The position numbers and the translations under genes were made by a program. From the IMG/VR virus record IMGVR_UViG_3300006155_000009: a stretch of 31,397 bases of DNA, one strand, 5' to 3'. Below are positions 2,124 through 28,462 of this stretch, in pieces. A model generated the notes under the pieces. That model saw only the letters and a program-made list of their open reading frames with translations, did not search any database and was not told where the DNA came from. The stretch's first letter is position 1, and every line of letters begins with the position of its first letter. This stretch comes from an uncultured virus (IMG/VR IMGVR_UViG_3300006155_000009). Lineage: Duplodnaviria; Heunggongvirae; Uroviricota; Caudoviricetes.

Positions 2124-2501
2124 ATGATTACGTTCAGACAAAAGGGCGACTTCTCTCACCTGACCAAATTCTTAGAAAGAGCAAAAGAGGTTGTGCGCCT
2201 CGGTGATCTCGATAAGTACGGTCGCGCTGGAGTGGCCGCCCTTGCGTCTGCGACACCTGTCGACTCCGGATTGACGGCGAGTTCGTGGTATTACGAGATC
2301 ACAAACAAAAACGGGACGGCGACGATTTCGTTCCGTAACTCCAACATTCAAAATGGAGTTCCCATTGCCATCATCCTGCAATATGGACATGGCACCGGAA
2401 CAGGCGGCTGGGTAGAAGGGCGAGATTACATCAACCCCGCTATCCAGCCTATTTTTGACCAAATTGCGAATGACGCATGGAAGGAGGTTGAACGGTTATG
2501 A
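2124..2501 (+). CDS. Tail completion/neck protein, HK97 gp10-like
   Basis: TPVDSG..SW..AIILQYGHGT..GRDYINPA pattern typical of the gp10-like family; RBS AAGGAG; ATGA overlap with the tape measure gene. Confidence 0.75.
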   Translation: MITFRQKGDFSHLTKFLERAKEVVRLGDLDKYGRAGVAALASATPVDSGLTASSWYYEITNKNGTATISFRNSNIQNGVPIAIILQYGHGTGTGGWVEGRDYINPAIQPIFDQIANDAWKEVERL

Positions 2502-5500: not shown

Positions 5501-8500
5501 ATTTTCCTGAACAATGCAAAGTTCAATGGAAAGGCTGTTTTGACTGCTACGGGTATCGTCATTCTTGCCTCTGCGATCAAGGTTCTTGCCTCCGCCTGTA
5601 AAGATTTTGGCTCTATGTCGTGGGGTGAAATCACTAAGGGTCTGGCATCTATTGCTGCACTTCTGCTGGAGATCACAGCGTTCACTAAACTGACCGGCGA
5701 TGCCAAACACGTTATCTCAACCGGTCTTGCCTTGATTGAAATTGCTGCCGCTATGAAGATATTTGCATCTGCGATGTCTGACTTTGGCAGTATGAGCGGT
5801 TCAGAGATTGCAAAGGGTCTTATGGCTATGGGTGGAGCTCTCGCTGAAGTGGCGATTGCTGTAAATCTGATGCCCAAGAACATGGTCAGTGTTGGGGCCG
5901 GCCTGGTCGTTGTCGGTGCGGCACTCAAGATTGTAGCCAGTGCTCTTTCCTCAATGGGCAACATGAGCTGGGAAGAGATCGCTAAAGGTCTTGTAGCTAT
6001 GGGCGGTGCTCTTGCCGAACTGGCTATCGGTCTGAACGTCATGAACGGAACGCTGGCCGGTTCTGCTGCGCTACTTGTGGCCGCTGGAGCGTTGACCGTT
6101 CTGACTCCGGTGCTCGTGATTCTTGGCAACATGAGCTGGGAAGCTATTGCAAAGGGTCTTATTACAGTTGCGGGAGCTTTCACAATTATGGGTGTGGCAG
6201 GAGCGGTTCTCGGCTCGTTGGCTCCGTCTATCCTTGCCATTTCCGGAGCACTGGCCCTGCTCGGAGTTGGTTCCGTTGCTATTGGAGCAGGCCTTACACT
6301 GATTGGTACAGGGCTGACCTCCATCGCAGTGGGTTTAACATCGTTGGCAGCCTCCTTCGCCTCCAGCGGAGCCCTCATCGTTGGTGGACTTTCAGCCATT
6401 GTTCTCGGATTCGCAGGGCTTATTCCGGCTATTGCCGAGAAAATCGGCGAGGCTATTGTGGCATTCTGCGGTGCCATTTCAAGTGGCACTCCAGCCATTG
6501 GCGAGGCTGTGAAAGCCATTGTTCTGACTTTGGTTGACATCCTCGTTGAGTGCGTTCCCGCTATTGCTGACGGTGCTCTTCAGTTGGTGACTGGCGTCTT
6601 AGCGTCTCTGGTTACTTATACACCCCAAATCGTAGATTCTGTTATGCAGTTCTTGATTGAGGTGCTTGAAGGAATTGCTCGCAATGTACCTCAGCTTGTT
6701 CAGGCAGCAATGGACGTAGTCGGCGCATTCTTCGCTGGCGTCCTGAGTGCTTTGAGCAATATCGACAGCGGTTCCCTTATTCAGGGGATCGCTGCTGTTG
6801 GTCTGCTTACAGCATTAGTCGCTGCACTCGGCGCTGTCTCGGGACTTATTCCGGCGGCCATGACCGGTGTTCTCGGAATGGGAGTTGTCATCACCGAACT
6901 CGCTGTCGTTCTGGCCGCCATTGGAGCTTTGGCACAAATTCCTGGCCTTGAGTGGCTTATCAGTGAGGGTGGTCAATTCCTCCAAACTGTCGGGAATGCG
7001 ATTGGCGGTTTTGTCGGCGGAATCGTTGGTGGATTCATGAGCGGAGTTTCCAGTTCGTTCCCTCAGATCGGGGCGGATCTGTCTTCGTTCATGACAAATG
7101 TGAAGCCATTTATTGACGGAGCCAGAAGCATCAACCCAGACATGCTCACTGGGGTCAAAGCGCTTACCGAAGCAATCATTCTCATTACTGCCGCTGATCT
7201 GCTGGAGGGATTGACCTCTTGGCTTACTGGCGGTTCCTCTTTGTCTGACTTCGCAGAACAGCTTGTGCCGTTTGGCGAGGCCATGATGAAGTTCTCCAAC
7301 ACCATTTCCGGTTTGGACGGAGATTTGGTCAGCACCGCTGCTATTGCTGGCAAAACACTGGCTGAAATGGCCGCTACTTTACCCAATACCGGAGGAGTAG
7401 TCGGATTCTTTGTTGGTGAAAACGACATGGAAGAGTTTGGGAATCAGCTCTCTGGCTTTGGCAAGTCTATGATGGACTTTGCTGACAGCATCAAGGGATT
7501 GGACTCCAACGCTGTTCAAAATGCCGCGATTGCCGGTAAGGCAATGGCCGAAATGGCTGCTACCTTGCCCAATACTGGAGGTGCAGTGTCCTTCTTCACC
7601 GGAAACAACGATATGGACACCTTTGGCGATCAGCTTGTCCCATTCGGCAAGGCTATTAAGGAATATTCCAATGCTGTGGCCGGTCTTGACGCAGACGCCG
7701 TTGTGAACTCGGCAACAGCCGGTAAGGCTCTTGTAGAACTTGCAAACACCATTCCCAATACTGGTGGAGCGGTTGCGTTCTTCACAGGAGACAATGACCT
7801 TGCAACCTTTGGCGAACAGATTGTTGTCTTTGGTAAAGCCATGAAGGAGTATTCGCAGACTGTTTCTGGTCTGGATGCCGAGGCTGTTACCAATTCCGCT
7901 ACAGCAGGAGCAATCCTCGTGGAGCTTGCAAATACCGTTCCGAATACGGGTGGGCTTGTAAGCTTCTTTGCAGGGGATAACGATCTCGAAACCTTTGGTG
8001 AGCAAATCGTTCCGTTCGGCGAGGCTATGAAGGCCTACTCCGATTCCATCACCGGCATCGATGCGGAAGCGGTAACTGCATCTACTACTGCGGCTCAGGC
8101 ACTCGCTCAGCTTCAAGCCTCTCTGCCAAACATGGGCGGGCTTGTTGATTTCTTCACCGGAAGTAATGATCTTTCTACATTCGCAGAAGGTATTATTCCC
8201 TTCGGTGAGGCGATGAAGTCCTATGGCCAATCGGTGTCTGGTATTGATGCTGAAGCCATTACTGCATCTGCCGTAGCGGCTCAGGCACTTTCCCAACTCC
8301 AAGCGACCCTCCCCAATGTTGGCGGGGTCATGGAGTTTTTCACCGGTGGAAATGACCTTGGCAAATTCTCTGAGGGGCTGGTCCCCTTTGGAGCAGCCAT
8401 GAAGTCGTATAGTGATTCTGTAGCCGGAATCAATGCAGAGGCTATTACTGCATCCGCCACTGCGGCCAAATCTCTGGCTGAGCTCCAGTCTGTTCTTCCG

Positions 8501-11500
8501 AATGTGGGAGGCGTCATGGAATTCTTCACTGGCGGTAACGATCTCGGTACTTTCGCCGCCGGCATCATTCCTTTCGGCGCAGCTATGAAGTCCTATGGGG
8601 AGGCTGTCGCCGACATCAATGCGGAAGCAATCACCGCATCCGCAATCGCGGCACAATCTCTTGCCCAACTGCAAACCACGCTTCCGGCAGTTGGCGGTGT
8701 GATGGAGTTCTTCACGGGAGGTAATGATCTTGCCACATTCGCCGCTACTATTGTTCCGTTTGGAGCGGCTATGAAATCCTACGGAGAAGCTGTTGCCGAA
8801 ATTAACACCGAGTCCATCACCGCATCCGCAATCGCGGCACAATCCCTTGCACAGCTTCAGACCACACTTCCGCAAATCGGCGGAGTTATGGAATTCTTCA
8901 CAGGCAGCTACGATCTTGCGGCCTTTGGTGAATCCCTCATTCCATTTGGCGAAGCTATGAGCTCCTATGGAGCCGCTGTCGCTGGTATTGATGCTGGAGC
9001 TGTGACAAATTCGGCGACTGCCGGACAGGCCCTTGTGGAGTTGGCCAACACCCTTCCGAAATGTGGAGGATTGGCAGAGGTATTTACCGGAAGCAATAGC
9101 TTGGCCGCTTTCGGCGATGATATTATTCAGTTTGGCGAAGACCTCTCTGCCTACGCCAACGCCATCAAAGATGTTAAACCGGAAATCGTAACAGCCTCCG
9201 CGAATGCCGCACAAGCTCTGTCTAATTTGGCAACCGGTCTTCCGGATAGCAGTCTCTTTGACAAATGGTTCGGCGGCGACCAAACCCTTGCTTCCTTTGG
9301 CAAAGATATTGCCTCGTTTGGAACCGACATGGGTAATTACTATTCCAAGGTAGCCAGTATTGATTTGACGAAGCTATCCGGGGTTGTTGCTCAAGTTTGG
9401 TCTCTTGTTGATCTGGCTAAAGGAATTCAGGGCGTTGACGCAAGTGGTCTCAGTTCGTTTGGAAATTCGTTGAAAATCATGGCGAATACTGGGATTTCTG
9501 AGTTCACCTCGGCGTTCTCAAATTCAACCGCTGAAGTCAGCAAAGCCGTTCAGGGTATGCTGAGTTCCGTAAGCGTCTCAATCACAAATGGCAAAACTCT
9601 CACTACCCCTGGTATGGAATCTGTGATGAAGTCGCTGGCCGACGTCGTTACGAAGAAGGCCACGGAGATCAACAACTCTGTAACGACAATGATGAAGGGC
9701 GTTGCAACTACTATTCGTAGTAGTGACTCATCTATCAAGAGCGCGATGCAGACCGCACTCTCTGGAGCAGTTACCACTGTGAACAGTCTGAAGCCGCAAT
9801 TCGAGACTGCTGGTGAGAATGCAGGCCAAGGCTTTGTCAATGGTATTCGTTCGATGCTTGATAGCTCAAGCGCGGCAGGCCGAAGTTTGGCATTGGCCGC
9901 ATTAAATGCTGCTAAGAAGGCATTGGATAGTCATTCACCTTCTCGTGAGTTCATCCATCTGGGTGAAAATATGGGCGAGGGGTTGGCTATTGGCGCTAAG
10001 AACAGTATTGTCCCAGCTTCTCAGGCAACCTCTACAATGATCGACGAGGTTCTTAAGGTCAGTTCCAAGGGGATTGACGCATTCCAGGAGTGGGCAGAGG
10101 AAAAGAAGTATTATGGTGAACTCAGCCTAAAAGACGAACTGGCAGGCTATGAGCGCCTACAGCAGATGTACAGGGCCGGAAGCGAAGAGCGCATCAAGAT
10201 TGACCGAGAGGTCTACCGAATTCAAAATGAGCTCGTTGCGTCCACTTATCAAGCGTCTATTAACTGGATCGAGGAGGAGAAGTATTACAACCGGCTCAGT
10301 ACGCAGGAAGAACTCGAAGCGTATGAGCGGATGCAGAAGCGATACTTGGAGGGCAGCGAGGAACGTAAGAAAATTGACCGCGAGGTCTACGCTCTTCGTA
10401 ATCAGCTCATGGATGAATCTTATCAGCACTCCATGGACTGGATCGAAGAGGAGAAGTATTACAACCGAATGAGCCTTTCCGATGAGCTCGCCGCTTACAA
10501 GCGGGTGCAAAGCCGATATGCGAAGGGCACCGATGAGCGCAAGAAGATGGATCGTGAGGTCTACCGGCTTGAACAAGAAATCTATGAGGCCCAGAAGCAG
10601 TACATTAGCGACGTTCAGAGTGTCCAGAGCGAAGCAAATCAGAAACGTTTGGATCTCGAAGAGGAGTATGCCAATAAGGTCAAGTCCATCAACGAGAAAT
10701 TAGCGTCTGATATCCAATCGCTGAATGATAAGTATCAAAGCGCATTGGAATCTCGCACCAATAGTCTTTACCAGTCCTATGGCCTCTTTGATGAGGTTAA
10801 GGAGCGGGAAGAAGTCAGTGGTGAAACGCTGATGAAGAACCTGACCGATCAGGTGAAGGAGTTTGGTGAGTGGCAGGATATTTTGGATAGCCTTTCTGCA
10901 AGAGGTCTGGATTCCGAGCTTGTCGGAGAGCTCCAAGAGATGGGCCCGTCCGCAATCGCGCAGATTAAAGCTCTCAACTCCATGAGCGATTCCGAGTTGG
11001 AGAAGTATGCTGCACTTTGGTCTATCAAGCACGCCCAAGCTCGTGAGCAGGCTGTTGGTGAGCTGGAAGGGCTCCGAATCGAAACCCAGAACAACATTGC
11101 TCAGCTTCGGGTCGATGCTGAACGGGAACTGGATGACTATCGTGCCACCTGGCAGACCAAGATGAACCAGGTCACCATCGATGCCAACAGGGAATTGGAA
11201 GAACTTCGTCAGGCCTTTGGCGAGAAAGTCGGTCTTATCAAGAAGGATACCGAAAAGGAAACGCAAGAGATGGCCGATGCCGCTCAAGCGATCCTTAAGG
11301 AAGCCGGATGGGATGAGACTGGCAAGCAGATCGTAACAGGCATTAAGGCTGGCGTCGAAGAGGAAAAGCCCAATTTCCTGGATGCTTTGACTCAGATGGC
11401 GTTGGACGGTGTTCAGGCTGTGAAAGACACACTTGACATCAACTCTCCTTCTCGGGTATTCCAGGAACTTGGTAACTTTACCGGTCTTGGTTTTGTGAAG

Positions 11501-11959
11501 GGGCTGACGGACTACGCCGATAAATCTTACGATGCCGCTGCCAATATGGCGGGGTATGCAACCGATGGCCTTTCCAACGCAATCTCCACTGTTTCCGATT
11601 TGGTCAATGGCGAGTTCGATATGCAGCCGAGTATCCGGCCTGTGTTGGACTTCACTGATGTGGCCAGAGGGGCCGGGGAACTTAACAACCTGTTTGGCTA
11701 CACAAGAACACTTGCCCTTGCTGGGCAAACCAGTCTGGCATTTAACTCCACCTTGGACAAAGATGGAATGACAGTCACCGTTGACAACGATGGCGTTGTT
11801 CAGGAACTTCGTTCTTTGAGGAGCGAGATGGCAGAGATGACCGCTCGTTTGGAGCGGATGCAGGTTGTCCTGGACACTGGTACTCTGGTCGGTGAAATGG
11901 CCGATCCGTTGGATGCAGCTCTTGGACAGAAACAAGCCTTTAGGGGAAGGGGGATTTAG
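2498..11959 (+). CDS. Tail tape measure protein (3153 aa)
   Basis: Very long Ala/Gly/Leu-rich helical protein with internal repeats, hydrophobic central region, LDSHSPSR/LDINSPSR motifs, directly upstream of Dit and Tal. Confidence 0.96.
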   Translation: MSRTVDERVVEMRFDNKQFESGVQTSLSTLEKLKRGLDLDGAAKGFDQLSTAAKKCDMSAIGRSVETVQAKFSAFEVVAMTALSNITNSAVNAGKRLLSSLTIEPISTGFSEYELKMGSIQTIMASTGESLDKVNQKLDELNKYSDRTIYSFSDMTSNIGKFTNAGVKLDDAVAAIQGVSNVAAVSGANANEASRAMYNFAQALSAGYVKLIDWKSIENANMATVEFKTQLLESAVAAGTLTRTADGMYKTLAKGTVIDATHMFNDSLQEQWMTTEVLTSTLKDYADETTEIGKKAFAAAQDVKTWSQLLDTLKESAQSGWAETWQLIAGDYEEAKTTLRTFSEFFSSIIDGSSEARNSLLQGALMSSWGQLKNRVNETGISVDSFRDTLRETAEGSVEGLDKMIEEAGSFDAALSKGWLTTDILSDTLDNLVSKAAGTQVSISELSDEQLQNIGYTQEQIDALRALSEEAKSSDSNLASLVSTLGRQSGRELLFDSLLNGAKAVQGLFQTIKGAWQDIFPPATSEQLYSFIEALHSTSERIRDFFTQAEEGSDGFTGAINKPLQDIGNTFKGLFAILDIVKQAFSALWRVITPAGSAVGGLLTGVLGLTGSFGEWLVKLDESIKKGDVFYKGLKTIVDVVKGAITAVTGFAAAIGESLGFPGLDGATASVEAFLGTLKEKVGAPGLEKLQVVFDGICTRVKWVKDGIVGMKDSVVDSMGEIDGAVSGNKFVQVLTGIGTLIRQVASAIGGLLGKAIDGLINTLSNANFNGILDFLNALAAGGIIAAINKFIDPVEELENTFTSLKDWVKGLGGGVTKILDGVRGSLEAWQTKLKSDALGKIAASIAVLSVSLLVLSSIDSDKVTGSLAAMGTMFAELIASMAVLDKLSIDGKAANKTASAMIKMGAALLVLSLAMKNIGELEPEQLAEGLIGVGVLLAEIDLFLNTAKFDKNASKSATGMILFAAAIKILSTAVKSLGEMDWDDMAKGLVGVGVLLAEVEIFLNNAKFNGKAVLTATGIVILASAIKVLASACKDFGSMSWGEITKGLASIAALLLEITAFTKLTGDAKHVISTGLALIEIAAAMKIFASAMSDFGSMSGSEIAKGLMAMGGALAEVAIAVNLMPKNMVSVGAGLVVVGAALKIVASALSSMGNMSWEEIAKGLVAMGGALAELAIGLNVMNGTLAGSAALLVAAGALTVLTPVLVILGNMSWEAIAKGLITVAGAFTIMGVAGAVLGSLAPSILAISGALALLGVGSVAIGAGLTLIGTGLTSIAVGLTSLAASFASSGALIVGGLSAIVLGFAGLIPAIAEKIGEAIVAFCGAISSGTPAIGEAVKAIVLTLVDILVECVPAIADGALQLVTGVLASLVTYTPQIVDSVMQFLIEVLEGIARNVPQLVQAAMDVVGAFFAGVLSALSNIDSGSLIQGIAAVGLLTALVAALGAVSGLIPAAMTGVLGMGVVITELAVVLAAIGALAQIPGLEWLISEGGQFLQTVGNAIGGFVGGIVGGFMSGVSSSFPQIGADLSSFMTNVKPFIDGARSINPDMLTGVKALTEAIILITAADLLEGLTSWLTGGSSLSDFAEQLVPFGEAMMKFSNTISGLDGDLVSTAAIAGKTLAEMAATLPNTGGVVGFFVGENDMEEFGNQLSGFGKSMMDFADSIKGLDSNAVQNAAIAGKAMAEMAATLPNTGGAVSFFTGNNDMDTFGDQLVPFGKAIKEYSNAVAGLDADAVVNSATAGKALVELANTIPNTGGAVAFFTGDNDLATFGEQIVVFGKAMKEYSQTVSGLDAEAVTNSATAGAILVELANTVPNTGGLVSFFAGDNDLETFGEQIVPFGEAMKAYSDSITGIDAEAVTASTTAAQALAQLQASLPNMGGLVDFFTGSNDLSTFAEGIIPFGEAMKSYGQSVSGIDAEAITASAVAAQALSQLQATLPNVGGVMEFFTGGNDLGKFSEGLVPFGAAMKSYSDSVAGINAEAITASATAAKSLAELQSVLPNVGGVMEFFTGGNDLGTFAAGIIPFGAAMKSYGEAVADINAEAITASAIAAQSLAQLQTTLPAVGGVMEFFTGGNDLATFAATIVPFGAAMKSYGEAVAEINTESITASAIAAQSLAQLQTTLPQIGGVMEFFTGSYDLAAFGESLIPFGEAMSSYGAAVAGIDAGAVTNSATAGQALVELANTLPKCGGLAEVFTGSNSLAAFGDDIIQFGEDLSAYANAIKDVKPEIVTASANAAQALSNLATGLPDSSLFDKWFGGDQTLASFGKDIASFGTDMGNYYSKVASIDLTKLSGVVAQVWSLVDLAKGIQGVDASGLSSFGNSLKIMANTGISEFTSAFSNSTAEVSKAVQGMLSSVSVSITNGKTLTTPGMESVMKSLADVVTKKATEINNSVTTMMKGVATTIRSSDSSIKSAMQTALSGAVTTVNSLKPQFETAGENAGQGFVNGIRSMLDSSSAAGRSLALAALNAAKKALDSHSPSREFIHLGENMGEGLAIGAKNSIVPASQATSTMIDEVLKVSSKGIDAFQEWAEEKKYYGELSLKDELAGYERLQQMYRAGSEERIKIDREVYRIQNELVASTYQASINWIEEEKYYNRLSTQEELEAYERMQKRYLEGSEERKKIDREVYALRNQLMDESYQHSMDWIEEEKYYNRMSLSDELAAYKRVQSRYAKGTDERKKMDREVYRLEQEIYEAQKQYISDVQSVQSEANQKRLDLEEEYANKVKSINEKLASDIQSLNDKYQSALESRTNSLYQSYGLFDEVKEREEVSGETLMKNLTDQVKEFGEWQDILDSLSARGLDSELVGELQEMGPSAIAQIKALNSMSDSELEKYAALWSIKHAQAREQAVGELEGLRIETQNNIAQLRVDAERELDDYRATWQTKMNQVTIDANRELEELRQAFGEKVGLIKKDTEKETQEMADAAQAILKEAGWDETGKQIVTGIKAGVEEEKPNFLDALTQMALDGVQAVKDTLDINSPSRVFQELGNFTGLGFVKGLTDYADKSYDAAANMAGYATDGLSNAISTVSDLVNGEFDMQPSIRPVLDFTDVARGAGELNNLFGYTRTLALAGQTSLAFNSTLDKDGMTVTVDNDGVVQELRSLRSEMAEMTARLERMQVVLDTGTLVGEMADPLDAALGQKQAFRGRGI
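7379..9330 (+). repeat. About 11 tandem 186-bp (62-aa) repeats inside the tape measure gene
   Basis: LPNxGGxxxFFTGxNDLxxF..PFGxAMKxY units; CCCAAT at 7382, 7568, 7754 (period 186); identical 29-mer at 8630 and 8816. Confidence 0.9.
10091..10610 (+). repeat. Three tandem 174-bp (58-aa) charged repeats in the tape measure C-terminal region
   Basis: WxEExKYY..ELxxYxRxQ..Y..G..ERxKxDREVY with Trp codons at 10091, 10265, 10439. Confidence 0.88.
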
Positions 11960-18054: not shown

Positions 18055-18426
18055 ATGGCAGAGAAGAAACTCAGCACTGTTGAGCAGCTCAAGATGCTTG
18101 CCCTCAGAGCAAAGGCTGATTCTGCCGCCCGTATCGCCGCCCTGGCGGCATTGGTTGCCGATGGTTATGGGCATCTCATCACGGTCACTTTGCCGGCTGG
18201 CAAATGGAGCGGCAGAGCACAGAAAATCGAACATCAGGCCCTTTTGGCGAACAGCGGCTACTGTTACTTTGTCTGCGGCGACGCCGACTGCTACATGGAT
18301 TGCAGTGACACCGGCATCAAAGCGGACAATGTTGTAAAGGACGGTGAGGTTATGTTCCGATGTGAAGTCACACCCGACATAGACCTGACCGTAAATATTC
18401 TTCGACTGGAGGTCGAGACAGAATGA
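18055..18426 (+). CDS. Fibre adaptor protein (123 aa)
   Basis: N-terminus resembles that of 17412-17990 (TxxQLKMLAxRxK); C-terminal domain resembles the end of 15476-16759; ATGA overlap with the DGR target gene. Confidence 0.72.
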   Translation: MAEKKLSTVEQLKMLALRAKADSAARIAALAALVADGYGHLITVTLPAGKWSGRAQKIEHQALLANSGYCYFVCGDADCYMDCSDTGIKADNVVKDGEVMFRCEVTPDIDLTVNILRLEVETE

Positions 18427-21170
18427 GTGAAAACCCCAATGTCGGCAAGGTATTCAATCTGACCGGCGGTGGCAGTAACGGCTCTCTCAAACTGGAGAGT
18501 TTGGATGTCACCAAGCCCCCTATCAAGACAACTTATAAGTCCGGGGAGAGCTTTGACCCCACTGGTATGGTGGTAACTGCCAGCTATGGCTATGGCATCA
18601 CCTCGGACGTGACCGGATACACCGTGACCCCCTCCGTCCTGACCGACGGTACTACCGAGGTCACTATCACCTACACTGAGGGCCGAACCACTAAGACGGC
18701 GAGTACGCCTGTGACTGTGGAGAAAGTCCTGGTATCCATTGAGGTCGCTACCAACCCGACCAAGATGACCTATAACTACCTGGAGAAGTTCGAGCCTCAT
18801 GGAATGGCTGTGACCGCCACATTTTCGGACGGTTCCAAGTCTGCCGCCACAGGGTATAGTTATCCCACCACGGAGTTCTCCACGCTGGGGCAGCAGGCTG
18901 TGAATCTGGATTACACCTTTGAGGGGGTTACCAAATCCACCAGTCTGACAGTGACGGTCGATCCCATTGAGGTGCCCGTTCCCACCCAGAAAGACGCCCC
19001 CAGCTATGACGGCAGCACTAAGCAGCCCATCTGGAACGGGTATGATTCCGTCAAAATGGCATTGGGCGGAACGACTGATGGAGTCAACGCCGGCAACTAT
19101 ACCGCTAAGTTCACTCTGGTCTACGGCTATGTATTCCCTGATGGGAGTAATGAGGCCGAGGCGGAATGGACAATTAGCAGAGCGGTTATTCCGGCACTGC
19201 CCACACAGAACAACGCTCTGGCCGCCGACGGCACGCCCAAGTCTCCTACTTGGGATGGTTACGTCGTAGGTCAGCTCACTATCAGTGGTGACCGATTCGG
19301 AACCGAGGCCGGCGACTACACTGCCGAGTTTACCCCGACCGACAACTATCAGTGGTGGGACGGCACTACTGATATGAAGACCGCTACCTGGACTATCTCC
19401 AGCGTCATCGTCCCTATCCCGACGCAAAAGGGCTCCCTCACCTATACCGGGGCGGCCCAGACGCCTCAGTGGGATAACTTCGATACGGAGAACTCTACCG
19501 TACAGGTCACGCCTGCTACGGATGCCGGCGAGCATACGGCTACGTTCTCTTTGCTGGCAGGTATGTGGTCGGATGGCACCACAGCCAACAAGACCATCAA
19601 GTGGGTCATTGGTCGGGCCACCATCGCCAAGATTCCGGCTCAGAGCGGTATGCCGAAGTACGACGGCAACCCCAAGACTCCGACCTGGGACACCAACTAT
19701 GACGCCACCAAGATGACGTTGAGTGTGGAGGCCAAGGTCAATGCCGGGACGGCCTATACGGCTTCGTTCACTCCGACCCCCAACTATCAGTGGCCGGATG
19801 GTACGATTGAAGCCAAGGTGGTTACCTGGGCCATTGGAAAGGGCGATAACGCCATTACGGTGAGCCCCACTTCGATTACGCTGAACACTGCGAACAAGAG
19901 CGGGAAGTTTACTGTCAGCCGGAAGGGTGATGGTACTATCACCGCCACCTCCAGCGACACCAAGATCGCTACCATCGGCGCCATCAACCAGACCACCGGT
20001 GAGGTGACTGTCAACAGCGTTGGCGATACTACCGGCACTGCGACCATCAAAGTCAAAGTTGCCGAGAGCGCCAACTACCTTGCCCCGGCGGATAAGGATG
20101 TTCCGGTCAAGGCACAATTCGTCACCATCTACGGCGTGGAATGGGATTGGACCAGTAGCGGCCCCACCAAGGGCACCCGCACCGACGCAGCGGCCGGGTT
20201 CAGCGATCCCAATCCTGCTGTGAACAACGGCACCGGTTCCTCTCCCTTCGACAGCCTGATGCCCTGGGCCGGCATGGTCAAAGAGACCCGAACTGGCGGT
20301 GTGATGGTGAAGGAGCCCAAGTATTGGTTTAAGTGGACCAAGACGGGGAAGAAGCTGAAACTGCAAATTGCGGACGGCCCCGTGGATGGGTTCCATGTGG
20401 ACCCTGTGAACATGGATAAGGGCGACGGCCTGGGCGAGCTGGACTTCTCCTACATCGGGCGGTATCACTGCGCCTCCGGCACCTACAAGTCGGAGACTAA
20501 CAAGGCGCAGCAGGTCAGTATCACCAGGAGTGCGGCTCGTACCAGTATCCACAATTTGGGGGCCAACATTTGGCAGATGGACTTCGCCCAGATGTGGTAT
20601 GTGGGTATGCTGTATCTGGTGGAGTTTGCTGATTGGAATGGTCAGAAGACGATCGGCTACGGCTGTTCCGCCGCCGGCTCCAAGGAGAACAACGGCAAGA
20701 CGGACGCCATGCAGTACCACACCGGCACTACGGCGGCCAATCGGACTACCTACGGGTACACCCAGTACCGCAACATTGAGGGCTGGTGGGACAACGTCTA
20801 TGACTGGATGGACGGCTGTTATTACAACAGTAACGGCCTGAATGTTATCTTGAACCCCAGCAAGTTCAGTGATAACGCAAATGGTACACTGATTGGTTCC
20901 ATGCCTTCGAGCGGTTATCCGAACGATATGGCAGTTCCGACACAAAGTGGATTCGAGTGGGCGCTTCGTCCGGCCACAACCGGCGGCAGTGACAGCACTT
21001 ATGTCGCGGATTACTGGTATTTCAACGGTAGTAGCCCGTGCCTGTACCACGGCGGTTACTATTACCAGATCCAGAATCACGGGCCGTTCTACGTCAACTA
21101 CGTCAGTACGTCGTACACGTACACCAGCATCGGCTGTCGCCTCCAGGAACGCCCGCCGAAGGCGGCGTGA
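18423..21170 (+). CDS. DGR target protein: Ig-like repeat adhesin/receptor-binding protein with C-terminal variable (CLec-fold-like) domain
   Basis: Two Big_3-like domains (PxKTTY..GExFDPTGMVVTAxY), about four PxQ..YxG..xPxW repeats, YRNIEGWWDNVYDWMDG and terminal IGCRL motif typical of DGR CLec targets; VR in its last codons. Confidence 0.92.
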   Translation: MSENPNVGKVFNLTGGGSNGSLKLESLDVTKPPIKTTYKSGESFDPTGMVVTASYGYGITSDVTGYTVTPSVLTDGTTEVTITYTEGRTTKTASTPVTVEKVLVSIEVATNPTKMTYNYLEKFEPHGMAVTATFSDGSKSAATGYSYPTTEFSTLGQQAVNLDYTFEGVTKSTSLTVTVDPIEVPVPTQKDAPSYDGSTKQPIWNGYDSVKMALGGTTDGVNAGNYTAKFTLVYGYVFPDGSNEAEAEWTISRAVIPALPTQNNALAADGTPKSPTWDGYVVGQLTISGDRFGTEAGDYTAEFTPTDNYQWWDGTTDMKTATWTISSVIVPIPTQKGSLTYTGAAQTPQWDNFDTENSTVQVTPATDAGEHTATFSLLAGMWSDGTTANKTIKWVIGRATIAKIPAQSGMPKYDGNPKTPTWDTNYDATKMTLSVEAKVNAGTAYTASFTPTPNYQWPDGTIEAKVVTWAIGKGDNAITVSPTSITLNTANKSGKFTVSRKGDGTITATSSDTKIATIGAINQTTGEVTVNSVGDTTGTATIKVKVAESANYLAPADKDVPVKAQFVTIYGVEWDWTSSGPTKGTRTDAAAGFSDPNPAVNNGTGSSPFDSLMPWAGMVKETRTGGVMVKEPKYWFKWTKTGKKLKLQIADGPVDGFHVDPVNMDKGDGLGELDFSYIGRYHCASGTYKSETNKAQQVSITRSAARTSIHNLGANIWQMDFAQMWYVGMLYLVEFADWNGQKTIGYGCSAAGSKENNGKTDAMQYHTGTTAANRTTYGYTQYRNIEGWWDNVYDWMDGCYYNSNGLNVILNPSKFSDNANGTLIGSMPSSGYPNDMAVPTQSGFEWALRPATTGGSDSTYVADYWYFNGSSPCLYHGGYYYQIQNHGPFYVNYVSTSYTYTSIGCRLQERPPKAA
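21007..21144 (+). repeat. DGR variable repeat (VR)
   Basis: 138 nt, ungapped match to 21330-21467 (offset 323) with 13 mismatches, 12 opposite TR adenines. Confidence 0.97.
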
Positions 21171-21226
21171 TTCCCCTGATAGAGGAAGGGGTTTGGGGTG
21201 AGGGGACCGCAGTCCCTTCCCCCAAC
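21150..21226 (+). promoter_or_regulatory. Two hairpins downstream of VR (candidate DGR homing/target-recognition elements)
   Basis: CCGCC-GAA-GGCGG at 21153-21165; TTGGGG(T)GAGGGGAC-CGCA-GTCCCTTCCCCCAA at 21193-21225; neither follows the TR. Confidence 0.75.
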
Positions 21227-21329
21227 TCTACGCCTTTGAACAATTCAAAATGGAGCTGAAACGCTCTTAAAAATCGCTTTTCTTTTGATAAAGGGAAGCG
21301 CGGGGTCAACTTTGCAGCAGACGATGTCC

Positions 21330-21467
21330 CGGATAACTGGAATTTCAACGGTAGTAACCCGTGCCTGCACCACGGCGGTAACTATAACCAGAACCAGAAT
21401 CACGGGCCGTTCTACGTCAACTACAACAGTACGTCGAACACGAACACCAACATCGGCTGTCGCATCC
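21330..21467 (+). ncRNA. DGR template repeat (TR), part of the template RNA (about 21298-21650)
   Basis: Intergenic copy of VR with 13 AAY codons in the VR frame; lies between target gene and RT. Confidence 0.96.
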
Positions 21468-21664
21468 TTGATAAGCCACGGGCTAAACCTCCTATAGGTA
21501 GTCAGGGTTCCTCACCCTTTCTATTACGCATCGTTGACCGCGCAGCACTGGCTGAAGATGAGCCGACAGGACACAGCTTAGTACACTTCGGGCCGGGTCT
21601 CGCCTCGGAACACCCCGCGGCGATGGAACAGTTGTGAGGCTACAAGGAGGAAAACATATCCCTG

Positions 21665-22840
21665 ATGAAACGAGTTCGAGTTTACCAACAAATCCTCTCT
21701 GAGGAAAATCTGCGTCTTGCCATCCAGGAGGTCTGCCGCAGTCACCGGCGCAATGGCGACCACAGCCTGAACAAGAAGGTGCTGGAGATCGAGGCAAACC
21801 TGGACGACTATGTGAAGGAGCTTCACAAGTTCATCGAGGACCTGGTGAGCGGAGACGCCCATATGAACAAACCTATCAAGCGACGGCGCTGGGACCGGAA
21901 CGGAGACAACGGGCGAGGGAAATGGCGAGACATCAACGAGCCCTTGTTATGGCCGGACCAGTGCGTCCATCACGCGGCCTTACAGGTCATGATTCCGCAC
22001 ATCATGCGGGGTATGGACCGCTACTGTATTGCAAGCGTTCAAGGCCGGGGCAACTCCTACGGCGTGAAGGCGCTGAAGAAGTGGATGGATGACGACCCCG
22101 TTGGTACCAAATATGCCTTGGAGTGCGACATTTACCACTGCTTCGAGGAACTGGACCCGGCGTATGTCATCAATGCACTGAAGCGGCTGTTCAAGGACCG
22201 GGAAACCCTTTGGCTGTGCGACGCCATGATGGAGTACGGTGTGCTGATCGGCGCATTCTTCTCCGCATGGTTCCTGCACCTTACAATCCAGCCGTTAGAC
22301 CTGATGATTCACGACAAGAAGTATGGCGTGAGTCACTATTTGCGGCAGATGGACAACTTTACCATCTTCGGTTCCAACAAGCGAAAGCTGAGGAAGCTGT
22401 TGGAGGACATGAAGGTCTGGCTGGCCGCAGTCGGATTGAAGCTGAAGGGAAACTGGCAGATCTTCCGGGTGGGCTTCACACCTCTGGTTGCTAAAGCCCA
22501 TGAGATGCTGCCCGAGAAAAAGCAGCGGCATCGCCGGCCAAGAATGCCATCCGCTCTTGGTTATCGGTTTGGTCGCGGGTACACGATTCTTCGGAAACAT
22601 AATCTGTTCCGGCTGAAACAATCGCTGCATCTGTACTACTATCGACGAGATCGGAACCGGGTCATCTCATTCAAGAGAGCATCCGGCTTGATTTCGCGGC
22701 TTGGGCAGCTTCGCAAATGCAACAGCCAACAGATACTGGAGCGGTACTACCAACCGAAGACGATGTTCGATTTGAAGAAGGTCGTCCGAAAGGAATGCAG
22801 GCGGCTTCAAGCATTATATCCGCCTTATGTGGCGGCATAA
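21665..22840 (+). CDS. DGR-class reverse transcriptase with atypical active site (QMDN)
   Basis: 391 aa, RBS AAGGAGG; ILSEENLRLA, KWRDI, PDQCVHHA, ECDIYHCF, GVLIGAFFSAWF, YLRQMDNFTIF, GLKLK, LGY motifs in RT order. Confidence 0.93.
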   Translation: MKRVRVYQQILSEENLRLAIQEVCRSHRRNGDHSLNKKVLEIEANLDDYVKELHKFIEDLVSGDAHMNKPIKRRRWDRNGDNGRGKWRDINEPLLWPDQCVHHAALQVMIPHIMRGMDRYCIASVQGRGNSYGVKALKKWMDDDPVGTKYALECDIYHCFEELDPAYVINALKRLFKDRETLWLCDAMMEYGVLIGAFFSAWFLHLTIQPLDLMIHDKKYGVSHYLRQMDNFTIFGSNKRKLRKLLEDMKVWLAAVGLKLKGNWQIFRVGFTPLVAKAHEMLPEKKQRHRRPRMPSALGYRFGRGYTILRKHNLFRLKQSLHLYYYRRDRNRVISFKRASGLISRLGQLRKCNSQQILERYYQPKTMFDLKKVVRKECRRLQALYPPYVAA

Positions 22841-22852
22841 AGGAGTGATACC

Positions 22853-23218
22853 ATGAAAGTACATGGGATGGTAGATCCCGGCAGTTTTACCGTGGAACAG
22901 ATCCCCGGGACAAACAGGAGTCTCGTGCGGCTTTTCCAGAATGTGGAGCCCTACCATGAGGAGAATTTCGACGGGTTCCAGTACAACGAGTACCATGTCG
23001 AGATTGAGACCTGGGACGGCATTGCCGCAAATGTGCAGGACAACTACGACGAGTTCCTGAAGAAGGGAATGGACAATGAAGTCGACCGCAGCAATGAGGC
23101 GCTGTTCCAAGCACAGCAGAAGACGGACATCGCTGTTCAGGACATGGATGGCATGAGCGTCGACCACGAGTATCGGCTGACCCTGCTGGAGCTGGGCCTG
23201 TCTGAGACTGATATTTGA
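22853..23218 (+). CDS. Tail fibre assembly chaperone-like protein (XkdW-like position)
   Basis: 121 aa acidic protein ending VDHEYRLTLLELG, followed by a 47-aa partner; RBS AAGGAG. Confidence 0.6.
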   Translation: MKVHGMVDPGSFTVEQIPGTNRSLVRLFQNVEPYHEENFDGFQYNEYHVEIETWDGIAANVQDNYDEFLKKGMDNEVDRSNEALFQAQQKTDIAVQDMDGMSVDHEYRLTLLELGLSETDI

Positions 23219-24150: not shown

Positions 24151-24522
24151 ATGGAAAAGTTGAACACAATTCAGAAGAGAAACAATCTGAACACCGTTTA
24201 CAGAGACGGGGAGCCAGGACCTGGTGGCGCACATCATGATTATGTGGTGTCGTTCGGCAGCAGTCTGCCGGAGAGTGATGGAGACGGTGTCCGTATTTGT
24301 TTCCAGTGCGGGCCCCGTAAGGACCCTGAGGCGCGGAAGGGCGTCTGTAATGCGGACCTGCTGGAAATTGTACGTGACCAGTTGCGTGCTTTTCAGGCTG
24401 GGCCGTTCAGCTGCCGGGAAAATGCCTGCGCCTTGACTCACATCGAGGAAGCCTTGATGTGGCTGAATTGCCGGGCTGAGGATCGGGCGGAACGTAACGT
24501 GCTGGGCACGATCGAGAAGTAA
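24151..24522 (+). CDS. tad1: Thoeris anti-defence sponge protein Tad1
   Basis: 123 aa; LxTIQKRxxLNTV, GPGGAxHxY, FQxGxRK, [36 protein letters not shown], RxEDRxERNVLGT match the Clostridium Tad1 sequence as I recall it. Confidence 0.88.
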
Positions 24523-26192: not shown

Positions 26193-27428
26193 CTATCTTA
26201 TTTTTTCGATTTCGGTCTTTAGCCACTCGAACTCACGCTGAGTGTAGACTTTCTCGGTAATGTCCGAAATCTTGTGACCGACCATGTACTTGATGGCATA
26301 TTCGTCTACCCCGGCTTTCTTGGCAGCAGTTACAAAGTGTTTCCGGCCATCGTGCGGACGATGCTCCGGTTTCAACTTCAGCTCATCCCGAACCATGGCG
26401 AACCCCTTTTGGTATCGCTGATAGGTCAGCATCGTTGGCTTGCCGCTGCGGCCATCCGTACAAGTAAATAAATACTTGCTGCCAGCCTTTTGAGACGCCT
26501 GATATTGTCTCTCGACTAAGTACCGTATCTTCGAGTGGATCGGTACGACACGGTTCTCTCCGGCATCAGTTTTCATACCGCCTTTGAATGTCCAGTTTTC
26601 AAGGTCAACATTCTCCAGCTCCAGTAGGCCGAGCTCCTGGGGCCGCCAGCCTGAGTAACACTGGATCAGCAAGATATCGACATAGCGTTTATCGTCAACA
26701 TGGGCCCAAAGCTGGGCCATCTCTTCTTCGGTGAAGGGAATATGCTCCTGTTTCACCGTTTGGATCTCTTTGATAGTCTCTTCGGTCAGGTTGAATGTGC
26801 GGGAGTAGTTCCGATCAACAAGTTCATATTCCAAAGCGTAGTCTAACATGAGATTGAACAGAGATTTAATTTTGTTCTTCATACTTGCCGAAGGATGCTG
26901 CTCTTTCCCTTTGACTTTGGCGGTTCCTTCTTCCATGCAGCCTTTTACATGACGGGCTCGAACATCCATCACCCTCATATCGTAGACAGCCGAACAATAG
27001 GCCCAAGCCGATGTAACAGCTCGGATGCTACCATCCGCTTTAAGGGTCTTAAAATACTCTTCTGACCATTTGTCGTAAAGCTCCCTAACTGTAATGGACG
27101 GCTCCAAATCATACGGATTTTTGTTATACTCTACGAGAGCGGCGTAAGCGTCATTGTAAGTAGGGAAATACGATTCCGGTTTCAGAGGTTTACAAATAGG
27201 CCGCCCTTCTGGGGTCTTTCCAACCGTAACCATCGCCCGAAAAGGGTTTCGGAGGTTACGGTTCTTTATTTCACTGATTTGACCAAAGCCATTGGGGAGG
27301 CGCCTTCGTTTGTTGCTCTTAACACGGGGTTTTCGTTTTACAGTGGGCTGCATCGGGTAGCCACAATGAGGGCAGGCCGTAGCCTTATCGCTAACTTGGA
27401 GTTCGCATTCAGGGCATTTTATTAACAT
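26193..27428 (-). CDS. int: Tyrosine integrase with N-terminal zinc ribbon
   Basis: CPEC..CPHC, RRRLPNGFGQI, catalytic R (GWRPQE), K (MKT), HxxR (HDGR), H (VGH), Y (EKVY). Confidence 0.95.
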   Translation of the reverse strand: MLIKCPECELQVSDKATACPHCGYPMQPTVKRKPRVKSNKRRRLPNGFGQISEIKNRNLRNPFRAMVTVGKTPEGRPICKPLKPESYFPTYNDAYAALVEYNKNPYDLEPSITVRELYDKWSEEYFKTLKADGSIRAVTSAWAYCSAVYDMRVMDVRARHVKGCMEEGTAKVKGKEQHPSASMKNKIKSLFNLMLDYALEYELVDRNYSRTFNLTEETIKEIQTVKQEHIPFTEEEMAQLWAHVDDKRYVDILLIQCYSGWRPQELGLLELENVDLENWTFKGGMKTDAGENRVVPIHSKIRYLVERQYQASQKAGSKYLFTCTDGRSGKPTMLTYQRYQKGFAMVRDELKLKPEHRPHDGRKHFVTAAKKAGVDEYAIKYMVGHKISDITEKVYTQREFEWLKTEIEKIR

Positions 27429-28090: not shown

Positions 28091-28462
28091 ATGATTACCA
28101 AGAACGCGTCAGTCTGCCCAAAATGCGGAGGACATCTCAGATTCTTCGACACTGTGAAACGCATTGTACGGACAAAAGCTCGGGTGACAGAATGGATTGT
28201 AATACGCAGACTCCGGTGTACTATATGTGGTTCGTTACATAGGGAATTACCAGAGGAACTATTCCCTTACAAGCAGTACGAGGCCGAAGTCATTATCGGT
28301 GTATTGGAGGGCCTTATCACCTGCGAAACACTGGGGTTTGAGGACTATCCCTGTGAGATGACTATGTCCCGCTGGCTCGCTGAATTTACAGGCGCTGTTA
28401 CGGAAAGGAGGTCGTACTATGAACGAGAAACGACTGATGGGCGAAATCGAGAAGCTGTGTAA
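28091..28462 (+). CDS. Zinc-ribbon protein (DUF6431-like)
   Basis: CPKCGG..IRRLRCTICGSLHRELP..PYKQY; RBS GAAAGGAG. Confidence 0.75.
   Translation: MITKNASVCPKCGGHLRFFDTVKRIVRTKARVTEWIVIRRLRCTICGSLHRELPEELFPYKQYEAEVIIGVLEGLITCETLGFEDYPCEMTMSRWLAEFTGAVTERRSYYERETTDGRNREAV

Follow-up and report, generated by a model that had tools for sequence, protein, structure and literature searches.

The YxDD box is treated as an invariant hallmark of active reverse transcriptases (RTs), and the loss of either of its aspartates serves as the routine "dead enzyme" control. Among the RTs of diversity-generating retroelements (DGRs), both aspartates have been reported as 100% conserved (PMC3521204), and the change YMDD>SMAA is used as a DGR null control (PMC12875486). 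The DGR of Bordetella phage BPP-1 (bRT-Avd, Mtd; PDB 8ub7) diversifies a C-type-lectin-type tail-fibre tip via an adenine-mutagenised copy of its template region (TR). In its RT, bRT, residues R74 and I181 promote adenine mutagenesis (PMC7826257). As described in a preprint (bioRxiv 10.1101/2023.10.23.563531), bRT Q187 contacts the incoming dNTP, and the cryo-EM complex was modelled with a cation 3 A from D138 and D215. DGRs of simpler composition have also been described. According to Wu et al. 2018, 29% of DGRs have no accessory genes and one lineage lacks avd; the "Architecture A" and "Lineage 3" systems of that survey consist of a target-TR-RT cassette without an accessory gene (PMC5758913). 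Its main text contains neither "YXDD" nor "YADD" nor "motif 5" and describes no change of catalytic motif (PMC5758913).

The window analysed here, a stretch of 31,397 nucleotides from an uncultured virus (IMG/VR IMGVR_UViG_3300006155_000009), contains a complete DGR within a prophage tail module, with target, variable region (VR), hairpin, TR, spacer and RT all in the same orientation (+ strand). Like the Avd-less systems of Wu et al., it is a target-TR-RT cassette; with BPP-1 it shares the RT fold (TMt 0.87), the fingertip Arg, the motif-4 Ile, a putative target-site hairpin after VR and a structured RNA after TR. The target gene, an ORF at 18423..21170, follows the tape-measure, Dit and tail genes. 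It encodes a 915-aa tail-fibre / receptor-binding protein that has Big_3 domains at its N-terminus and matches the PHROG tail protein phrog_5302 over aa 624-914. The C-terminal variable-protein domain (20280..21167), which contains VR, has a C-type-lectin / FGE-like fold; the best PDB matches to its AF2 model (pLDDT 95.5) are the DGR variable protein TaqVP 5vf4 (E 6e-9), then FGE, Mtd 1yu* and TvpA 2y3c.

The VR (21001..21144) ends 26 nt before the target stop codon and is a 144-nt direct repeat of the TR (21324..21467) at 90% identity. The TR is rich in AAC codons, has 43 A in its 144 nt and ends 197 nt before the RT start. In the window, TR and VR differ at 14 positions, where the TR base is A in 12 cases and C in the other 2. 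A GC-rich hairpin lies directly 3' of VR (21149..21168; 8 pairs, one bulged C and a GAA loop in the DNA fold), and none follows TR. Its fold z-score is only -1.05; its position matches that of the DGR target-site hairpin, a role for which we presume it to be a candidate. Between TR and RT, RNAalifold over 20 loci predicts a structured spacer RNA (21456..21648) of 26 pairs; compensatory changes occur in 13 of these. The observed values were reached in 0 of 500 shuffles, and the covariation score is 0.34 vs 0.05-0.08 for slid partners. One helix pairs the TR 3' end (21465-21470, TCCTTG) with 21643-21648 (CAAGGA), overlapping the ribosome-binding site of the RT. That site had been called strong in the first-pass annotation: the sequence AAGGAGG is present (21644-21650), but it ends 14 nt before the ATG, which is a long spacing. 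Contigs from two metatranscriptome libraries (X15, X16), in which DNA carry-over is possible, span TR and RT.

The RT gene (21665..22840) encodes 391 aa with no internal stop, and the earlier description of the ORF as intact is correct. The protein matches the PHROG reverse transcriptase (4e-48), and bRT is its only sequence match in the PDB (E 1.7e-5), at only about 20% identity. The AF2 model of the RT (pLDDT 94.7) has bRT (8ub7_A) as its best PDB fold match, with TMt 0.87 and rmsd 2.5. Pfam RVT_1 (PF00078) covers aa 144-261 only and scores 25.8 bits (E 1e-5), below its gathering cut-off of 29.6. Two other classes of RT were rejected. A defence RT (DRT/UG, retron, Abi) was set aside on PADLOC, which returned its generic RT model only (58.9 bits) and weak UG matches below 24 bits, and a group II intron RT on an NCBIfam group II RT score of 34 bits vs a cut-off of 300.

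The catalytic site differs from that of bRT in three places. Motif C (22346..22357, codons CAG ATG GAC AAC) reads Q228-M229-D230-N231 in place of YxDD, which is YMDD in bRT, exactly as the first-pass annotation had read it; its context in the RT is HYLRQMDNFTIF. Only the first Asp of the box is retained, and the protein lacks the two-Asp box signature of DGR RTs. In motif 4 (I195-G-A-F-F-S200-A201-W202, 22247..22270, within GVLIGAFFSAW at aa 192-202), aligned to bRT I181...S186-Q187, the Ile-Gly and Ser of the [I/V/L]GxxxSQ signature are present, but Ala stands where the Gln would be (Ser in some relatives); the departure from the DGR-typical SQ form noted earlier thus stands, with Ala at the position of bRT Q187. 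In motif A (E153-C154-D155 of LECDI, 22121..22129, by alignment to bRT), the catalytic D155 (22127-22129) aligns with bRT D138, whereas E153, two residues before it, is Glu against Lys (K136) in bRT. The retention of D155, of the motif-4 Ile and of the Arg of KWRDI had all been read correctly in the first pass. The fingertip K86-W87-R88 (21920..21928) is followed by D-I. Residues K86, R88, D155, G196, R227, D230 and G299 are invariant across 90 aligned family members, position 231 is D or N throughout the same alignment, and I195, which aligns with bRT I181, is invariant in a 19-row DN alignment. The phmmer alignment to bRT begins at residue 94, and from the motif R88 is the probable counterpart of bRT R74.

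A departure of this kind in one sequence might be an error or a decaying gene. A change from Tyr to Gln takes two base changes (TAY to CAR), as had been argued in the first pass. QMDN is present in 92 and YMDN in 11 of the 120 homologues listed, the remaining 17, mostly fragments, giving no pattern match; the family has 1603 matches in all, 150 of them among the matches listed. The close homologues share QMDN, not YMDD. The motif is found in all 43 loci of its clade. These loci are not independent samples, since a single phage lineage recovered from mouse-gut metagenomes accounts for many of them. The four motif codons are identical in all 29 full-length QMDN coding sequences from these loci, and in none of the 29 is the ORF or motif broken. 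Over the 376 pairs of these sequences with dS >0.05, the RT has a median dN/dS of 0.084. Between the window and a relative, dS reaches about 1.4, and synonymous sites are saturated within the QMDN clade, at a dS of about 1-1.5. A sequencing error or pseudogene is ruled out by the fixed motif and intact ORFs. By these comparisons, QMDN is a natural, fixed RT variant under strong purifying selection, and not a product of decay.

The replacement of the second Asp by Asn extends well beyond this clade. The QMDN clade (support 100) is nested inside a clade of 19 rows (support 100), all but one of them DN, and it lies within a wider Y[MILV]DN clade, beyond which the outer relatives have YxDD. Further independent DN lineages exist outside the Y[MILV]DN clade; overall, the second Asp became Asn at least 4 times. 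The motif-4 change is more restricted: QMDN loci read SAW (31) or SSW (11), whereas the sister YMDN clade reads SQW in 48 of 51 loci. In the innermost clade, a box Tyr to Gln change and an "SQ" Gln to Ala/Ser change come on top of Asp to Asn. We found no description of YMDN or QMDN in any RT in the literature searched, although subscription journals and the supplementary tables of DGR surveys may hold one; to that extent the variant does not appear to have been catalogued already. The DGR is a known system, of which the Asp to Asn RT lineage appears, from sequence comparison, to be a new natural variant.

Precedents for such a box come from other polymerases. In D211N, a laboratory mutant of Ty1 RT, the second Asp of YXDD is likewise Asn. 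It polymerises in vitro with a 223-fold lower kpol and a preference for Mn2+, and it does not support transposition (PMC2148107), in agreement with what the first-pass annotation had stated of it. Unlike that engineered change, the present one arose naturally, has become fixed and seems to be compatible with the biological function of the element. Natural Asn in place of the second motif-C Asp also occurs in the RNA polymerases of Birnaviridae and Mononegavirales, right-hand polymerases in which it has been linked to altered metal use and lower efficiency (PMC4634563). These are RNA-dependent RNA polymerases of animal viruses, whereas the enzyme here is an RT, and their relatedness to it is confined to the palm fold. 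By analogy with both, chemistry on two Asp and one Asn would probably be slower and might have another metal preference. The two most important carboxylates are still in place, namely D155 (motif A) and D230, the leading Asp of motif C. Fingertip R88 and motif-4 I195 are retained as well; the bRT residues to which they correspond (probably so in the case of R88) promote adenine mutagenesis.

The TR/VR pairs bear on whether the enzyme works. Among 34 QMDN loci with >700 nt upstream, 31 have a TR/VR pair and 3 do not. Across QMDN loci, 589 of 629 TR/VR differences lie at TR adenines, A making up about 30% of the TR; this share is inflated by the filter of the scan, under which a pair needed at least 70% of its differences to fall at A. 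One locus dropped by that filter (L019) gives 11 of 16 in the unfiltered repeat list, where the adenine bias occurs only in the RT-adjacent pair and is absent from other repeats. Several independent DN lineages all have adenine-biased TR/VR pairs. Such a pattern could in principle be inherited. If the DGR had been inactivated recently, the adenine bias would be a fossil left by an ancestral YxDD enzyme and the VRs would now be frozen; one TR/VR pair by itself, such as that of the window, gives no date for the mutagenesis. The age of the DN state and the intact motif and ORF in a clade with dS of about 1-1.5 argue against this, as do the VRs themselves, which differ between loci with 99-100% identical RTs and near-identical TRs. 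The 20 QMDN loci compared have 20 distinct VRs vs 11 TRs, and 10 loci whose RTs are at least 99% identical have 10 distinct VRs vs 4 TR variants. Yet another VR is found on a contig from a different mouse-gut study that spans the region (record 19 of X3). The VRs are not frozen, and we regard a fossil DGR as extremely improbable. The sequencing-run data consist of assembled contigs, with 24 runs listed. In run X2, two contigs end inside VR, at 21017 and 21104, and the RNA-library contigs are fragmented there; a gap in contig coverage proves nothing.

With the motif fixed, dN/dS low, the TR/VR pairs adenine-biased and the VRs differing, the QMDN enzyme is very probably active. Comparative genomics thereby supports the earlier suggestion that the RT represents a divergent DGR lineage whose active site has been remodelled and which is still mutagenic. 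The RT would copy the TR RNA into adenine-mutagenised cDNA, which would then replace VR. A second way to account for live VRs is that the QMDN protein is catalytically dead and kept as an RNA-binding or structural partner while another cellular RT makes the cDNA, a complementation in trans that the first-pass annotation had offered as its other possibility. Retroviral RTs are inactivated by loss of any catalytic Asp (PMC2148107). We compared the nearest genome and virus records; host-genome RTs, of which tblastn with the QMDN RT found none, were classified with a purpose-built profile. The host genomes contain several other RTs, with 9 RVT_1 matches in one (G001), and another (G003) has a second, YMDD-type DGR-like RT (L153, 163 bits). 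Against a helper stand a complete 84-kb phage record whose RT is 100% identical and which has a single RVT_1 match, the lack of a second DGR-like RT above 100 bits in 4 of the 5 host genomes, and the absence of any similarity between the QMDN RT and the remaining RVT_1 loci of G001 (tblastn E >1). The invariance of K86, R88, D155, I195, G196 and D230, together with the dN/dS of 0.084, fits a working active site, and the same Asp to Asn change is fixed in several independent lineages with adenine-biased TR/VR pairs. A dead RT served by a helper is accordingly very unlikely in our judgement, and the QMDN RT itself presumably makes the cDNA. Taken as a whole, the locus is with high likelihood a functional, phage-borne DGR without Avd that diversifies a tail-fibre receptor-binding tip and whose RT belongs to a natural lineage with Asn for the second Asp. 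This comparative evidence indicates that the textbook three-aspartate RT site is not obligatory in nature.

Beyond what the first-pass annotation had noted, the Asp to Asn change is older and much wider than QMDN, it covaries with a motif-A residue, and no Avd is recognisable. The covarying residue lies at position -2 to the motif-A Asp. All 42 QMDN loci have E there. Of the 51 other DN loci, 28 have E and none has K, which is the residue in 40 of 40 DD loci. In the 90-row alignment, DN rows have E (20) or Q (5); among DD rows, 47 have K and 12 have Q, the other 6 being mixed and including a single E. A motif-C Asn never co-occurs with Lys at -2. On the tree, this covariation with Asn231 reduces to 4 contrasts on well-supported branches, or 6 on all, and lacks statistical support (sign test p about 0.5). 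Replacement of Lys by Glu or another non-basic residue may be a structural compensation for the lost Asp. A stronger version holds that the third carboxylate was relocated and not lost, such that Glu153, on the motif-A strand, replaces the missing Asp, a three-carboxylate site is kept and the enzyme is active. The Glu of QMDN and many other DN loci against the Lys of DD loci, and the pairing of DN rows with E or Q and of DD rows mostly with K, speak for it. The lone DD member within the DN clade (P0137) has Y at -2, and at position 233, a probable cross-strand neighbour, 76% of DN rows but no DD row have T. Against it, Q, S, C, T, A or L takes the -2 position in 23 of the 51 other DN loci, so a carboxylate is not required there; what all DN loci share is that they lack Lys. 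The independent tree contrasts are too few, the residue calls at distant loci come from pairwise tblastn alignments that may be shifted, and the E153-N231-T233 geometry is a presumption from general RT topology. On balance, we think a relocated carboxylate rather unlikely.

Avd is present in 74% of DGRs and therefore is not universal. No match to Avd (PF05635) was found among the window ORFs or in any of 6 phage records at least 90% complete, unlike in BPP-1; a divergent Avd that escapes the Pfam model is possible. Two small ORFs were considered as Avd and rejected, one of 121 aa downstream of the RT (22853-23218) and one of 123 aa upstream (18055-18426), both without Pfam or PHROG support.

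The variant may be relevant in several respects. First, motif-based filters and the Pfam cut-off would miss or discard real DGRs of this type, since the QMDN RT scores below the RVT_1 threshold. Second, the Gln of the SQ motif and the Tyr of the box would not be needed for adenine-selective infidelity. Third, the family offers natural pairs (DN vs DD, Glu vs Lys at -2, A/S vs Q in motif 4) with which the influence of the active site on metal preference and on the misincorporation spectrum could be dissected. Finally, a compact Avd-free DGR is a candidate for targeted-mutagenesis engineering.

The mutation spectrum also differs from that of the described enzyme. Among changes in DN loci, A-to-C accounts for 54 of 1141, vs 77 of 368 in YxDD relatives, which is four-fold fewer. 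It is rare in the QMDN loci themselves (28 of 589), whereas for bRT the misincorporation of dG opposite A is 11.6%, out of a total of 51.6% (PMC7826257). Scarce A-to-C would shrink the amino-acid repertoire accessible from AAC codons. A joint reading of these features is possible, and we put it forward tentatively: a large RT lineage in Oscillospiraceae gut phages would work on two Asp and one Asn, its mutator retuned by the remodelled site, with dG opposite template A nearly absent, one highly mutable template C, no Avd, and a conserved RNA pairing between the TR 3' end and the RT ribosome-binding site. If it holds, the YxDD box, the SQ motif and Avd would all be dispensable for adenine-specific mutagenesis, and the motif-C Asn with the motif-A Glu would be a naturally evolved lever on the metal use and the spectrum of the polymerase. 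The mutable cytosine is TR position 45 (21368, facing 21045 in VR), the first base of a CAC codon and a non-adenine position that varies in VRs by TR/VR comparison. It differs in 11 of 20 QMDN loci (C>T 8, C>A 2, C>G 1), and besides it the same 20 TR/VR pairs contain just 2 non-A differences.

The DGR reverse transcriptase (RT) of the window is a 391-aa open reading frame without internal stop (21665..22840, + strand), with AAGGAGG at 21644-21650 and 14 nt between this site and its ATG. Codons CAG ATG GAC AAC (22346-22357) give the box Q228-M229-D230-N231, in the context HYLRQMDNFTIF, where canonical RTs have YxDD. Motif 4 is GVLIGAFFSAW, the motif-A catalytic aspartate is D155 (in LECDI), and the fingertip is GKWRDI, all as the first-pass annotation had read them. 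An AF2 model of the protein (pLDDT 94.7) lies closest to the Bordetella phage BPP-1 DGR RT, bRT (8ub7_A; TMt 0.87, rmsd 2.5 Å), which is also its sole PDB sequence match (E 1.7e-5). Its Pfam RVT_1 score of 25.8 bits falls under the gathering cut-off of 29.6, and its homologues in the protein collection either lack a name or are called "hypothetical protein," many without Pfam annotation. Thus, surveys of DGRs or RTs that rely on thresholds may overlook this lineage.

The RT sits in a complete DGR inside a prophage. A 144-nt direct repeat pairs 21324-21467, 197 nt upstream of the RT, with 21001-21144 at the 3′ end of a gene for a 915-aa protein (18423-21170). The copies differ at 14 positions, 12 of which are adenines of the RT-proximal copy; this copy is therefore the template region (TR) and the other the variable region (VR). 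The final 290 aa of the target match a PHROG "tail protein" family, and an AF2 model of its final 296 aa (pLDDT 95.5) has the DGR variable protein TaqVP as top match (5vf4, E 6e-9), followed by formylglycine-generating enzymes, Mtd, and TvpA. A GC-rich hairpin (21149-21168) directly follows the VR; none follows the TR.

The first-pass annotation had proposed either a divergent DGR RT lineage that may still mutagenise or a dead RT complemented in trans, and had pointed to motif conservation among homologues, dN/dS, and VR variability in carriers as informative. Comparative evidence supports the former: QMDN RTs very probably form a divergent but working DGR lineage. We retrieved 58 viral-contig loci, plus 80 loci of species-representative genomes, and scanned them for TR/VR pairs; a pair was accepted only when 70% or more of its differences fell at A in one copy. 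Under this filter, pairs were found in 31 of the 34 QMDN loci with >700 nt upstream (43 loci in all), with 589 of 629 differences at TR adenines; in 39 of 42 such loci with another x-x-D-N (DN) box (51 in all), with 552 of 578; and in 26 of 32 such loci of x-x-D-D (DD) relatives (40 in all), with 368 of 403. In the repeat list without the filter, adenine bias is confined to the RT-proximal pair and absent from the target gene's other repeats.

VRs also vary between otherwise similar carriers. Twenty QMDN loci with a 144-nt TR hold 20 distinct VRs versus 11 TRs; where the RT is at least 99% identical to that of the window (ten loci), all ten VRs differ, and the TR occurs in four variants. Thirteen DNA runs from mouse gut, drawn from seven other studies, contain 0.94 of the words sampled from 20300-22900, a stretch of which the VR makes up 5.5%, and one contig covering this whole stretch has a VR unlike the window's. 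Near-identical RTs beside different VRs, together with this contig, indicate that the VR is rewritten on a time scale over which the phage is otherwise constant.

The unusual box is widely shared. A word-indexed search found 420 relatives at E ≤1e-3; among the 120 listed, the box is QMDN in 92 and YMDN in 11, and the remaining 17, for the most part fragments, failed to fit the pattern. Motif 4 carries S-A/S-W and motif A carries E-C-D in every QMDN protein; the YMDN set, at about 50% identity, keeps the canonical SQW. An exhaustive search extended the family to 1603 relatives. We aligned the query with 110 proteins from both searches: five close QMDN relatives and 105 proteins 300 aa or longer (P0098 onward in our numbering of RT-family proteins). 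DN boxes occupy 31 rows (YMDN 17, QMDN 7, YIDN 2, YVDN 2, YLDN 1, HMDN 1, YADN 1) and DD boxes 78 (YMDD 41, YADD 11, YIDD 8, YVDD 6, NMDD 5, and others); two rows are garbled. In a 90-row alignment, K86, R88, D155, G196, R227, D230, and G299 are invariant, and position 231 is D or N. On a maximum-likelihood tree computed after removing the motif columns, the QMDN clade (support 100) is nested in a 19-row clade (support 100) with 18 DN rows, and the D/N state changes 6 times by parsimony, at least four of them on well-supported branches. QMDN is thus a clade character and no accident; the nested DN clades and repeated changes show that loss of the second aspartate is old and recurrent, with Q-for-Y and A/S-for-Q a later step inside one DN lineage. 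The box tyrosine is replaced by Asn (NMDD, NVDD, NMDN) in seven further family proteins and one RT locus and by His (HMDN) in one protein, so the "Y" of YxDD is also variable in this family.

Selection on the gene points the same way. Across 29 full-length QMDN coding sequences from the fetched loci, pairwise dN/dS has a median of 0.084 and a maximum of 0.149 (376 pairs with dS >0.05), and dS between the window and its relatives goes up to about 1.4. All 29 sequences share the same four box codons; those of E153 and D155 vary synonymously. These values mark a protein under strong constraint.

If the QMDN RT were instead dead and complemented in trans, another RT would have to make the cDNA. 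One host genome (G003, that of RT locus L071) does carry a second DGR-like RT, L153, with canonical YMDD, a 414-aa open frame, and 163 bits to the family profile. However, the other four of the five QMDN-carrying host genomes searched with this profile gave no second match >100 bits, and an 84-kb virus record with a 100% identical RT, complete according to CheckV, has a single RVT_1 match. In the nearest genome, the further RVT_1 loci bear no relation to the window RT. Thus, complementation is not generally available, and we consider a dead RT very improbable.

A working QMDN RT would catalyze with two aspartates plus Asn, slowly. The catalytic aspartates of bRT are described as D138, D215, and D216, with a modelled cation 3 Å from D138 and D215 and the incoming dNTP contacted by R74, I181, and Q187 (bioRxiv 10.1101/2023.10.23.563531); the first two of these contact residues promote misincorporation at adenines (PMC7826257). 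The window RT retains the equivalents of D138 (D155), D215 (D230), R74 (R88, judging from the motif), and I181 (I195) but departs from bRT at D216 (N231), Y213 (Q228), and Q187 (A201). As the first-pass annotation had stated, Ty1 RT with the same Asp-to-Asn change (D211N) still polymerizes; its kpol is 223-fold lower with unchanged dNTP Kd, it prefers Mn2+, and its pyrophosphorolysis is poor (PMC2148107). A natural Asn at the second motif-C aspartate is reported in birnavirus and mononegavirus RNA polymerases (PMC4634563). Slow catalysis would be affordable, since the product is a 144-nt cDNA and DGR RTs are already very inefficient as a class (PMC7826257).

The residue two before the motif-A aspartate is K in 40/40 DD loci and in 0/93 DN loci scored at this position (E 70, S 7, Q 6, C 5, T 3, A 1, L 1). 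Across the 90-row alignment, it is E (20) or Q (5) beside DN and K (47), Q (12), or another residue beside DD; the sole DD member within the DN clade has Y. Position 233 changes together with this residue, being T in DN and V or I in DD. Given the usual RT palm topology, both positions presumably neighbor residue 231. Co-variation and expected proximity together suggest that a Lys-Asp pair was swapped for Glu/polar-Asn; we offer this as a hypothesis because a co-change test on the tree yielded 4-6 independent contrasts and a nonsignificant sign test. We infer compensation by Glu153, as we do the biochemical mechanism, metal use, and any change of mutation spectrum.

That spectrum was compared in TR/VR pairs of 99 loci (L001-L147 and the window). 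Changes at TR adenines are A>G 396, A>T 165, and A>C 28 in QMDN loci; 313, 213, and 26 in other DN loci; and 163, 128, and 77 in DD relatives. A>C is thus about four-fold rarer in DN (54/1141) than in DD loci (77/368; chi-square p 2e-22; per locus, Mann-Whitney p 1e-11), in VRs seen after selection, with differing target proteins and phylogenetically clustered loci. Where AAC codons are changed at their second A, A>C accounts for 1/162 sites in QMDN, 1/167 in other DN, and 15/88 in DD loci. The DD share (21%) resembles the spectrum of bRT in vitro, where a total misincorporation of 51.6% included 11.6% dG (PMC7826257). Pairing of dG with template A may therefore be rare in DN enzymes. Selection on the target, rather than an intrinsic change of spectrum, could also account for the scarcity. 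Separately, TR position 45 (cytosine 21368, first base of a CAC codon; VR counterpart 21045) is a site-specific non-adenine hotspot: among 20 QMDN loci, the VR differs there in 11 (C>T 8, C>A 2, C>G 1), versus two differences in all at other non-A positions of the 20 pairs. The homologous CAC shows C>T as well in five YMDN loci.

The 197-nt TR-RT spacer contains a conserved RNA fold (21456-21648) of 26 pairs, 13 with compensatory changes; 0/500 shuffles reached the observed scores, and its covariation score is 0.34 versus 0.05-0.08 in slid controls. In the outer helix, the TR 3′ end (21465-21470) pairs with 21643-21648, overlapping the Shine-Dalgarno region of the RT. By likeness to the TR:Sp duplex of bRT, this helix could serve as a template:primer duplex, and it could link priming to translation. 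No match to Avd (PF05635) was found in the window ORFs or in six phage records at least 90% complete. Avd-less DGRs are already known: 29% are reported without accessory genes, and "Lineage 3" lacks avd (PMC5758913).

We rate the catalytic-motif variant as new and the DGR system and absence of Avd as known. The first-pass annotation had allowed that the variant might already be catalogued; a search of full-text literature found no description of a YMDN, QMDN, or YxDN-type RT/DGR motif. It is likewise absent from the DGR papers in which YxDD or YMDD appears and from the main text of PMC5758913. QMDN contigs may be listed as DGRs, motif unremarked, in the supplements of large DGR surveys.

PHROG matches identify, among the RT neighbors, Dit, tail, and fibre genes, a tape measure (2498-11959, +), an endolysin-like gene, and a possibly lysis-related gene matching the "hemolysin" family phrog_937. 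Beyond the lysis genes lie a tyrosine-type integrase (26193-27428, − strand; phrog_1) and a DUF6431 protein (28091-28462, +; E 4.5e-27), which probably mark the prophage end and the drop in GC from about 0.54 to 0.46 past 25 kb. A 123-aa protein (24151-24522, +) matches phrog_2428 and, above cut-off (E 3.8e-7), the Acb2/Tad1 hairpin domain PF24729, making it a possible anti-CBASS/anti-Thoeris nucleotide sponge in the prophage late region. The tape-measure protein is unusually long, with 3153 aa in a single ORF.
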